Shown in pieces: positions 10,844 to 12,173 of a stretch of DNA of 23,570 nt. The stretch lies in the IMG/VR virus record IMGVR_UViG_2563366944_000005. The stretch is one strand, 5' to 3'. The position numbers and the translations under genes were made by a program. Source of the DNA: a virus (taxonomy: Duplodnaviria > Heunggongvirae > Uroviricota > Caudoviricetes). Position 1 is the stretch's first letter, and every line of letters begins with the position of its first letter. The notes beneath the pieces are model-generated. The model was not told the origin of the DNA. It did not search any database and saw nothing but the letters and a program-made list of their open reading frames with translations.

Positions 10844-11893
10844 TTACGCCAGTACGCCAATTGCCAGCGCGCGATCGATAAAACGAAATATCAGCTCCAG
10901 TTGGGAGCCATACTTATCTTCAAATGCCACTGTATCCGTATGCAGCTCGTTGTGATGCTTTCTGCACAAAGGCAACACAAAGAGATCATGTGCTTTTGTT
11001 CCCATTCCGCCCTGCCCGTGACCAATCAGATGATGCGGATCGTCGGCTGGCATACCGCAGCAAGCACACGGCTGTGTCTTAACCCAACGTGTGTATTTCT
11101 CCTTAACCCAGCGGCGACGTTTAGGCAGCTTCATGAAAGATTCCGGAGACTCTGGATCAACGGTGATGCTTACCACCGTCTTTTCCTGTGGTGATTTTTG
11201 TTGCTGGTGGGCGTAAGGCAACGGTGCAAGATTTTTTGTGCGTTGTTTCAATATGCTGGTGGCGGTCTGCTCTCCCGGTACGATGTCGCTTTCGCGGTAC
11301 ACCGAGCAGATTTTTTCCGCTGGTAATCCCAGCGAACGACGCGATACAGCCTCAGGTAGTGCATCCACCACCTGATTGCAGACCGCCCACCAGGATAATT
11401 CAGCCAAAGATAATTCCCGCTCCTGCGTACCGCTTATTGCGTGACGGATGACGTCAATCACCCATGCTGTCAGATTTTGTTGAGCAAGCAGCTCCAGTGA
11501 TTCCGATGTCTGGTCACGCAGTTGGTTGTCGCAGTGCCAGCACAACACCATTGCGCCGGTACCATAACGGTGAATGACTGTTTCAGTGTGATGGTAATCG
11601 CCATTAGGCCACTGGCAGGATGTAACATGACGTAATAGCCAGTCGGACAATGCGCCAACGCCGCCAGCAGCACGAATCACCCGTTCGTTACTAAAAAACG
11701 GCAGCAATGTTTTGTCTTCCGCCAGCGGCTGGCGAACGGCAGGAACGACTCCGGATGGCAGATTACGCATGCTTTTTGGTTCCGGTTCCACCAGCACTCG
11801 AGGATTATGAAATATCTGTATGGATTCACGGCCCGGCTTAAGGACCACCAGCCCAAGCTCAGGCACCAGAACAGGTCTAAGTAATACCCGCAC
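10844..11893 (-). CDS. ydfU: DUF968 protein with C-terminal HNH-like motif (349 aa from GTG)
   Basis: Track ORF 10844..11932; GTG at 11893 preceded by GGAGG, with the upstream ORF stop inside the spacer; C-terminus CACCG...HHLIGHG...CRKHHNELH. Confidence 0.8.
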   Translation of the reverse strand: MRVLLRPVLVPELGLVVLKPGRESIQIFHNPRVLVEPEPKSMRNLPSGVVPAVRQPLAEDKTLLPFFSNERVIRAAGGVGALSDWLLRHVTSCQWPNGDYHHTETVIHRYGTGAMVLCWHCDNQLRDQTSESLELLAQQNLTAWVIDVIRHAISGTQERELSLAELSWWAVCNQVVDALPEAVSRRSLGLPAEKICSVYRESDIVPGEQTATSILKQRTKNLAPLPYAHQQQKSPQEKTVVSITVDPESPESFMKLPKRRRWVKEKYTRWVKTQPCACCGMPADDPHHLIGHGQGGMGTKAHDLFVLPLCRKHHNELHTDTVAFEDKYGSQLELIFRFIDRALAIGVLA

Positions 11894-11894
11894 G

Positions 11895-12173
11895 TTACCT
11901 CCAGATCCGTTGCTGGAAAGTGCGGGACGCACGTGGTGGGCGTTCGGAATAAGGCAGCCTGACAGAGATTATCCAGTGCCGATAGTCGAGACTGAGAGCT
12001 TTCTTAACCTCGAACCCGCGCCTGCGGTAAGAATGAATCAGCCATTCGGCCTGTTCTGCAGTGCATGGAGGGTGCCGGAACCATTCAGACTTGAATGCGT
12101 GAGAATACCGCCCGTGCGTGCAGGCAAGAACGGGCGAATTATCAGAATTGTAATATTTTGCGTTGCGTGCCAT
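11895..12173 (-). CDS. hypothetical protein (92 aa), coupled to ydfU
   Basis: Track ORF; ATG with GGAGA SD; stop sits 1 nt before the ydfU GTG. Confidence 0.55.
   Translation of the reverse strand: MARNAKYYNSDNSPVLACTHGRYSHAFKSEWFRHPPCTAEQAEWLIHSYRRRGFEVKKALSLDYRHWIISVRLPYSERPPRASRTFQQRIWR

Follow-up and report, generated by a model that had tools for sequence, protein, structure and literature searches.

Immediately before the late antiterminator gene Q, Qin-type prophages of Escherichia coli carry ydfU, a gene of the DUF968 family, and directly upstream of ydfU lies an open reading frame (ORF) of 92 amino acids (aa). What do these two frames encode, and do they form a functional unit? The question arose from a stretch of 23,570 nucleotides (nt) of viral DNA (Caudoviricetes; IMG/VR record IMGVR_UViG_2563366944_000005), referred to here in its full length as the window, for which an earlier note had proposed that the C-terminus of YdfU resembles an HNH zinc-finger nuclease and that ydfU is expressed together with the small ORF as a two-gene unit. 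Both genes, like the others discussed here, lie on the minus strand:

10844..11893, minus strand: ydfU coding sequence, GTG start at 11893-11891, stop at 10846-10844, 349 aa; from the ORF and its translation and from RefSeq annotation in near-identical genomes.
11895..12173, minus strand: the 92-aa ORF, a conserved small phage gene of the phrog_1212 family, ATG at 12173-12171.

The locus makes up the promoter-distal end of ninR, the recombination region, in a Qin-type lambdoid prophage; its order is small gene, ydfU, Q. The explanation that we favor, and regard as probable, is that here a small ninR gene is coupled to the gene for the HNH protein YdfU ahead of Q, with a product that acts independently of YdfU.

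The C-terminus of YdfU reads ...QPCACCGMPADDPHHLIGHGQGGMGTKAHDLFVLPLCRKHHNELH... and contains the string CACCG...HHLIGHG...CRKHHNELH, whose Cys and His pairs had suggested the likeness to an HNH zinc finger. Profile comparisons and structure prediction bore this likeness out. DUF968 (PF06147) matched residues 160-346 with an E-value of 1.4e-76 (256.8 bits against a cut-off of 27.8), PHROG 96, "HNH endonuclease", matched the full length of the protein (E 2.8e-171), and in hhalign a profile of the C-terminal 95 residues aligned with that of YbcO (DUF1364) at E 1.5e-4, compared with 0.019 for NinG and 0.32 for RusA. Moreover, the AlphaFold2 (AF2) model is confident at the C-terminus, where residues 285-319 form a strand-strand-helix element, the beta-beta-alpha-metal fold of the His-Me finger/HNH superfamily. 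The residues that characterize an HNH domain (C276-x2-C279, H287-H288, D303, C310-x2-H/C313, H314, and H318) are invariant or nearly so; H287-H288, H314-N315, and H318, which align with the HH and CxxCH...H of IscB and YbcO, are invariant or at least 90% conserved among 23 homologues. They correspond to the superfamily's catalytic His, which ends strand 1, and to its helical His/Asn that bind the metal. Among solved structures, those of the phage P1 Ref nuclease and of the prophage protein YbcO come closest, together with the HNH domain of IscB and Cap5. Profile, profile-profile, and fold evidence thus identify the C-terminus of YdfU as a genuine zinc-stabilized HNH/His-Me finger domain. The protein as a whole has three parts, a conserved N-terminal Cys/His region, a variable linker, and the C-terminal HNH domain, which map to the window as follows (pLDDT is the per-residue confidence score of AF2):

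10856..11416, minus strand: Pfam DUF968 match (PF06147), YdfU residues 160-346.
10904..11101, minus strand: C-terminal His-Me finger (HNH) nuclease domain, YdfU residues ~265-330, with the zinc knuckle C276-x2-C279...C310-x2-H313 and the HNH residues H287-H288, D303, H314-N315, and H318.
11132..11314, minus strand: variable low-confidence linker, YdfU residues ~194-254, with pLDDT <50 and with gaps and length variation in the alignment.
11504..11641, minus strand: N-terminal Cys/His cluster, YdfU residues ~85-130, with C93-Q94, H101, C118, C121, and D122-N123, outside the Pfam model.

The HNH reading is correct yet not new. An HNH zinc finger in YdfU was noted in 2014 (Curtis et al.; PMC4118853), and DUF968 was later grouped with DUF1364/YbcO in His-Me finger group 7 by authors who named the YdfU of Qin (NP_416078), noted its RusA and Q neighbors and proposed a role in recombination (Jablonska et al., 2017; PMC5714182). 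Several phage records already label YdfU homologues "HNH endonuclease", while ydfU still stood on a 2024 list of uncharacterized K-12 genes.

In the kind of profile search that the earlier note had proposed, the matches to DUF968 and PHROG 96 were significant, while the HNH-specific models of Pfam stayed below their cut-offs. HNHc_6 (PF16784), a model of Orf-HNH fusions from Gram-positive phages, matched residues 268-328 at E 6.3e-6 with only the HNH part of the profile (positions 123-184 of 204), and at 26.3 bits did not reach its gathering threshold of 26.6; RecA_dep_nuc (Ref, PF16786) matched the same residues at E 0.0037, with 17.8 bits against a cut-off of 26.9. Of 23 diverse homologues, which range as low as 27% identity and include Vibrio phage proteins and P1 PdcB, 19 gave the HNHc_6 match at E ≤ 0.01 and just two the Ref match. 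On these scores, YdfU is a relative of HNHc_6 and not a member.

That both models stay under their cut-offs weighs against our reading of YdfU as a nuclease, and several other observations do so as well. The AF2 model, built from an alignment of close relatives only, is weak as a whole (mean pLDDT 63), and its best Foldseek match, at E 0.6, was not significant. P1 PdcB lacks the equivalents of H288, H314, and H318, and a Vibrio phage homologue lacks several of the Cys, so catalysis is not universal in the family. The ratio of nonsynonymous to synonymous substitutions (dN/dS) in the HNH part is 0.22, a weaker constraint than the 0.064 of the N-terminal cluster, and biochemical evidence of nuclease activity for DUF968 proteins was not found in the literature searched. 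As to known structures, the sequence profile of the C-terminus had HNH proteins for all its top matches in the PDB, yet with E-values of 0.2-0.7; the top matches of this search and of Foldseek were IscB, Cap5, YbcO, and McrA, none significant alone. The full-length protein gave one chance match to PDB sequences as a single sequence (peptide N-glycanase, E 0.32) and none as a profile.

Full-length homologues, covering residues 19-349, occur in 186 phage records, among them phages of Klebsiella, Salmonella, Yersinia, Hafnia, Providencia, and Vibrio and the PdcB protein of P1, and the start residue of YdfU is shared with distant homologues (MR[VA]LL... in the alignment), which supports the GTG as the start of the 349-aa frame. 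The most constrained part of the protein is not the HNH domain but residues ~85-130 (the dN/dS of 0.064 refers to E. coli copies). From E. coli to the Vibrio phages and P1 PdcB, C93, Q94, C118, D122, and N123 are invariant, whereas positions 101 and 121 are each occupied by either H or C. Because such His/Cys swaps are typical of zinc ligands, this conservation pattern suggests that the N-terminal cluster is probably a second, so far undescribed zinc site. AF2 confidence is low in the cluster; by sequence it had no relative in the PDB, where the N-terminal and middle part of YdfU matched only S100 proteins, by chance (E ~0.5). We rejected the idea that the cluster is a degenerate duplicate of the HNH domain (BLASTP E 43 for the expected register; hhalign of the N- against the C-terminal domain, P 0.029, probability 1.7%). 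PdcB itself is annotated as of "unknown function" (AF234173.1, 1905-2948 of the extracted locus) and shares 26% identity with YdfU across residues 32-348. Its gene immediately precedes lpa, which encodes the late-promoter activator, an arrangement that mirrors the adjacency of ydfU and Q in lambdoid phages.

These features lend some weight to the alternative that survives best, namely that YdfU does not function as a nuclease. Its HNH-like fold would then serve as a structural or DNA-binding zinc module, with the N-terminal cluster as the functional part, for instance in a regulatory or DNA-binding role tied to the late-gene regulator. Conservation in YdfU is indeed highest in the cluster and lowest in the HNH part; the homologues from P1 (PdcB) and from Vibrio phages keep the whole architecture although catalytic or zinc residues have been lost; the gene sits directly before Q in lambdoid phages, as it does before lpa in P1; and one homologue is annotated as "phage transcriptional regulator". 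Nevertheless, we consider this alternative unlikely, given that all the hallmarks (CxxC, HH, D/N, CxxH/C, H...H) are kept in the Qin protein and in nearly all enterobacterial homologues, that the closest structures, Ref, the IscB HNH domain, and Cap5, are active nucleases, and that the genomic slot otherwise holds proven or putative nucleases (NinG/Rap, YbcO, RusA).

E. coli prophages carry two allelic forms of the HNH module, CACCG...CRKHHNELH and CMTCG...CRKCHNELH, with differing C-terminal ends. The synonymous divergence (dS) across residues ~250-349 (10844-11140) is 1.13, against 0.53-0.68 in the remaining gene, which implies mosaic exchange with a recombination breakpoint within ydfU. Fusions of YdfU with neighboring products turned up as rare single-member database clusters, both with Q (DUF968 plus Antiterm; P0123, P0124, and P0126; 607 aa) and with RusA (RusA plus DUF968; P0175; 447 aa); they may be read-through mutants or assembly errors.

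We turn now to the small ORF, which the earlier note had called unannotated. This holds for MG1655 (NC_000913.3), where the frame is intact with one residue different and carries no annotation, but not for other genomes, since RefSeq's Prokaryotic Genome Annotation Pipeline (PGAP) calls it in C600 and other strains as the hypothetical protein WP_012304870.1. The exact protein is found on 351 contigs in public databases as a "hypothetical" or "prophage" protein, and a search of 5.8 billion proteins gave 129 homologous clusters, whose complete copies are almost all 90-92 aa long. Named copies of this length come from E. coli, E. marmotae, E. albertii, and Shigella, with identities as low as 64%, and they differ by in-frame indels of two or three residues while sharing an invariant C-terminal tail. 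The ORF consists of an extension (residues 1-26), a beta-alpha-beta-beta core (27-74), and a basic tail (75-92); in the AF2 model the core has pLDDT >90 and residues 1-23 are disordered. Between diverged loci, dN/dS is 0.18-0.39 at dS 0.27-1.16, and by segment it is 0.64 in residues 1-26, 0.19 in the core, and 0.076 in the tail. The dS of the tail, 0.40, indicates that its conservation acts at the protein level and is not just a product of recent recombination. The ORF also has its own Shine-Dalgarno (SD) sequence:

12181..12184, minus strand: SD sequence GGAG of the 92-aa ORF, 7 nt before the ATG, present in most diverged copies.

Residues 27-92 matched phrog_1212 over its whole length (profile positions 1-66 of 66, E 5.9e-35). 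Short homologues of 66-69 aa occur in phages and prophages of Salmonella (Gifsy-2), Klebsiella, Citrobacter, and Cronobacter, and also of Hafnia, Edwardsiella, Yersinia (PY54), and Erwinia; altogether, homologues were found in functional phages of at least nine genera. Family members such as Gifsy-2 STM1021.1n, mEp237_051, and PY54 ORF47 share the pattern W-F-x-H-x2-C-T...Y-R-x-R-G...D...W...L-P...W with the 92-aa ORF, to which the Escherichia-group copies add a poorly conserved, predicted disordered N-terminal extension of 24-26 residues. An exhaustive profile search of 1.84 billion representatives returned 111 members, almost all of them stand-alone proteins of ~66 aa. These sequence data show the 92-aa ORF to be a genuine gene that encodes a protein and is kept under purifying selection. 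It belongs to a narrow enterobacterial phage family of ~66 aa and is already catalogued (PHROG, PGAP) but unnamed. It has no recognizable fold and matched no Pfam (E ≤ 1) or NCBIfam model. Its identity with NinE or NinF (PF05322, PF05810) was ruled out, as neither the ORF (E ≤ 1) nor its Gifsy-2 homologue (E ≤ 0.01) had a Pfam match; Erwinia phage 59 has a separate NinF gene alongside the small gene. P1 PdcA (66 aa), encoded directly before PdcB, was likewise dropped as a homologue, the family motif being absent by eye.

The end of the small gene and the start of ydfU are interlocked:

11891..11902, minus strand: coupling junction GGAGG-TAA-C-GTG, with the ydfU SD at 11902-11898, the TAA of the small ORF at 11897-11895, C at 11894, and the GTG at 11893-11891.
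11887..11926, minus strand: RNA hairpin predicted by minimum-free-energy (MFE) folding over the SD and GTG of ydfU.

The minus-strand sequence therefore agrees with the description in the earlier note of a GGAGG ahead of the GTG and a stop codon within the spacer. The sequence TGGAGGTAACGTG (TGGAGG-TAA-C-GTG) is identical in 11 loci whose small genes diverge to dS ~1, ydfU always starts with GTG just four bases after the SD, and at all 77 loci of a first survey the downstream gene starts 1 nt past the stop of the small ORF. The locus thus has the closely spaced stop and start and the internal SD of a translationally coupled pair, conserved in its relatives. In the MFE fold, the end of the small ORF pairs with the SD and GTG of ydfU (CCCGCAC-UUUCCAG / CUGGAGG-UAAC-GUGCGGG). 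Of 11 diverged copies, 9 are predicted to form this hairpin, with probabilities of being unpaired of 0.06-0.25 for the SD and 0.01-0.05 for the start. As a significant SD-occluding structure, however, it was rejected: the z-score of the 121-nt stretch was -0.41, and 30% and 14% of shuffled flanks were equally occluding.

The claim of coupled expression thus stands as to its geometry, but gaps or overlaps of a few bases between stop and start are the norm at the other junctions of the ydfU region, which makes coupling plausible without by itself defining a dedicated pair. Three further points count against our reading of the junction and its small gene. We infer coupling from the geometry alone, the hairpin being no more stable or occluding than shuffled controls; ribosome-profiling support for the 92-aa ORF was not found in the literature searched; and Rho-dependent termination ahead of ydfU is strong in K-12. 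In K-12, rho or nusG mutations or bicyclomycin raise the RNA of ydfU (log2 1.4-2.8) but not that of rem, the gene upstream of the small ORF, and the terminator ahead of ydfU is listed among the strongest Rho-dependent ones. Such strong termination suggests that the small ORF is poorly translated in the uninduced cryptic prophage of K-12.

Whether the two genes belong together is best judged from their neighbors, for which we tallied 260 loci from public viral contigs, phage records, and genomes, a redundant set of mostly near-identical loci. In E. coli, the 92-aa form precedes ydfU at 90 of 90 loci with a readable downstream gene, and the pair stays constant while its surroundings change, with rem, hok, parDE, or others upstream and rusA or any of four Q families downstream. 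The short form, usually preceded by a DUF1367 or a NinB/Orf-like gene, is followed instead by NinG (86 loci), YbcO (77), RusA (1), a cytosine methyltransferase (1), or unknown ORFs (2). Small proteins identical at 63 of 64 positions precede NinG in some Klebsiella phages and YbcO in others, so the small protein is not co-adapted to one nuclease. Conversely, the small gene was absent upstream at seven of eight further loci with a ydfU homologue (mEp460, mEp390, YeP2, yong2, PSTCR8lys, Vibrio phage Pel, and P1). In mEp460, YeP2, and PSTCR8lys a KilA-N gene takes its place directly upstream, in mEp390 and yong2 the neighbor is rusA, and in Pel and P1 it is an unrelated gene. The KilA-N domain proteins are 268-269 aa long (1130-1939 in the mEp460 locus L092, 1141-1950 in the YeP2 locus L094, and 1138-1944 in the PSTCR8lys locus L096). 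YdfU homologues stand directly before Q, or P1 lpa, in most of the phage contexts examined, and many E. coli prophages have rusA interposed between ydfU and Q.

Next in plausibility comes the view that YdfU and the small protein are exclusive partners in a two-component system of their own, in which the 92-aa protein is an obligate subunit, a specificity factor, or an inhibitor ("immunity") and coupling enforces the stoichiometry. It would account for the observation that each sampled 92-aa gene of E. coli precedes ydfU with an identical junction despite variable neighbors on both sides, and for the tail of the small protein, next to the junction, being its most constrained part; moreover, one Klebsiella phage has a short-form gene ~60 nt before a ydfU homologue. 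We nonetheless hold it to be improbable, since near-identical small proteins precede either NinG or YbcO, other members precede RusA, the cytosine methyltransferase, or unknown ORFs, and the ydfU homologues of the seven phages named above lack such a gene upstream. Neither the consistent co-occurrence nor the co-variation of a nuclease with a dedicated partner, or of a toxin-antitoxin pair, was seen; the 111 family representatives included no fusion of the small protein to YdfU, and no toxin-antitoxin signature or PADLOC match was found, so a reading of the two genes as a defense system was also set aside. The two-gene unit of the earlier note is therefore real as a constant arrangement in E. 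coli, but it is a lineage-specific instance of a common mosaic pattern and not a dedicated system. Read most simply, the mosaic ninR region keeps a conserved order of genes, in which an Orf-like mediator comes first, the small protein second, and Q last; the place ahead of Q belongs to a His-Me nuclease that can be exchanged (NinG, YbcO, or YdfU) and that may be joined by RusA.

Under the explanation that we favor, an independent small ninR protein encoded ahead of the HNH protein YdfU, induction of a Qin-type phage would lead to co-transcription of the small gene and ydfU from the early rightward transcript. Ribosomes ending at the small ORF would re-initiate at the weak GTG of ydfU, or open the hairpin there, which would tie the synthesis of YdfU to that of the small protein; in K-12 the unit would normally be silenced by Rho. 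YdfU would be a metal-dependent DNA endonuclease acting on recombination or replication intermediates, with H288 as the general base, H318 (with N315/H314) holding the catalytic metal, and the Cys3His zinc knuckle as scaffold, while the N-terminal zinc-like cluster may supply targeting. It would fill the nuclease slot before Q that NinG/Rap or YbcO take in other lambdoid phages, and its frequent coexistence with RusA implies that it is not merely another Holliday-junction resolvase. The small protein would act on its own account ahead of whichever His-Me nuclease the phage carries, and not as a dedicated subunit of YdfU.

A more speculative proposal, prompted by positional and structural observations, has two variants. 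Either the ~66-aa phrog_1212 protein is a general accessory factor (a loader, targeting subunit, or brake) of the His-Me nucleases of the ninR region, or YdfU is a Ref-like, recombinase-guided nuclease with an N-terminal targeting zinc domain. The first variant would explain the position of phrog_1212 before YdfU, NinG, or YbcO and its translational link to them, as well as its place directly after the Orf/DUF1367 recombination mediator. We regard the proposal as doubtful. Finally, the 92-aa ORF might be no gene at all, having arisen by chance or decayed within a cryptic prophage. Such an origin would account for the missing annotation in NC_000913.3 and would fit the strong Rho-dependent termination across the stretch in K-12, the lack of a Pfam or NCBIfam family, and the failure to find translation data in the literature searched, but it is nearly refuted by its dN/dS at dS up to ~1, by indels that are all multiples of three, by the preserved length of 90-92 aa, by its own SD and confidently folded predicted core, and by the homologues in functional phages and the PGAP calls in other genomes.

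The genes on either side conform to this picture of the locus:

10078..10830, minus strand: Q-type late antiterminator ydfT/quuQ (Pfam Antiterm, E 5e-54, and RefSeq annotation), 13 nt downstream of ydfU.
12240..12491, minus strand: rem, upstream of the small ORF in Qin (RefSeq annotation and phrog_340), after a 66-nt gap.

The 13-nt gap and the Antiterm match confirm that ydfU lies just upstream of Q, in the recombination and nuclease region ninR, as had been proposed. Many E. coli genomes, K-12 derivatives included, have a Qin-type prophage to which the 1.9 kb around the two genes are 99.9-100% identical and in which the gene order is ydfT(Q)-ydfU-hypothetical-rem-hokD-relE-relB, and the region of the window that holds them is 100% identical to NZ_OZ547117.1. 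Past flxA (window ~14700-20100) the gene order diverges from that of K-12 Qin, with long minus-strand ORFs of 437, 339, and 173 aa where K-12 has ydfW-ydfX-dicC-dicA, so the prophage of the window is a fuller Qin-like one from another E. coli. An IS1414 (IS256-like) element breaks the region of the 1.9-kb query around ydfU/rem in NZ_CM136999.1 and NZ_OZ547038.1. Between hokD and rem (12622-12639, minus strand) there is a strong hairpin followed by a T-run, resembling an intrinsic terminator (AACCCGCTTCGGCGGGTT TTTGTTTTTA); if it acts as one, expression of rem, the small ORF, ydfU, and Q would call for antitermination or a promoter of their own. Just ahead of the small ORF (12254-12227, minus strand) there is a weak promoter-like site, though the promoter and terminator scan gave counts no higher than in shuffled sequence. 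The rem product matched the SocB toxin model very weakly (E 0.0048; 15.9 bits against a cut-off of 210). The phage records ON470583.1 and ON470619.1 give the label "toxin to Rem" to the feature at the place of the small-ORF match; this label is probably annotation noise, like the SocB match.

For the most part, then, the locus is an ordinary piece of the mosaic lambdoid ninR region, and the practical value of the analysis is small but real. MG1655, the best-annotated bacterial genome, has no entry for an intact 92-codon gene that is under purifying selection and ought to receive a name and a b-number. E. coli prophages carry this gene widely, among them those in which it sits next to the Q that controls Shiga-toxin expression. 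ydfU remains in the "y-ome" although its HNH fold has been recognized for a decade, and the fold match to Ref together with the unstudied N-terminal Cys/His cluster offers concrete leads on its product. In a genome-wide association study of Irish Shiga-toxin-producing E. coli, haemolytic uraemic syndrome was associated with 26 accessory genes, one of them the allele ydfU_1 (odds ratio 4.3; PMC11950266). The association most likely reflects linkage to the Q region of Stx2 phages, where ydfU sits.

Compared with known systems, the junction is of an ordinary kind: it shares with other translationally coupled phage pairs the 1-nt gap, the SD in the last codons of the upstream ORF, the weak GTG, and the predicted hairpin, and its tight spacing is typical of most junctions in the ydfU region and not special to this pair. 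Among the nucleases, the branch-specific NinG/Rap of lambda and RusA occupy the same ninR slot shortly before Q. NinG likewise belongs to the His-Me finger superfamily, and in Gifsy-2 and related phages it follows the shared small gene, but beyond the superfamily no sequence relationship of YdfU with NinG or RusA was detected at the hhalign values given above; since ydfU often co-occurs with rusA, it is not simply its substitute. YbcO of group 7 (PDB 3g27, DUF1364) is a protein of the same kind, but YdfU is longer (349 against 96 aa) and has the extra conserved N-terminal Cys/His region, which is absent from the Pfam model and from the papers cited here. The other close relative, P1 Ref (PDB 3plw), is a RecA-dependent HNH nuclease whose model YdfU matches below the cut-off. 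At 186 aa, Ref is far shorter than YdfU and so has no room for its long N-terminal part. Phage P1 has both Ref and the separate full-length YdfU homologue PdcB. Ref cuts inside D-loops made by RecA, and being the closest structural relative, it suggests such structures as a candidate class of substrates for YdfU.

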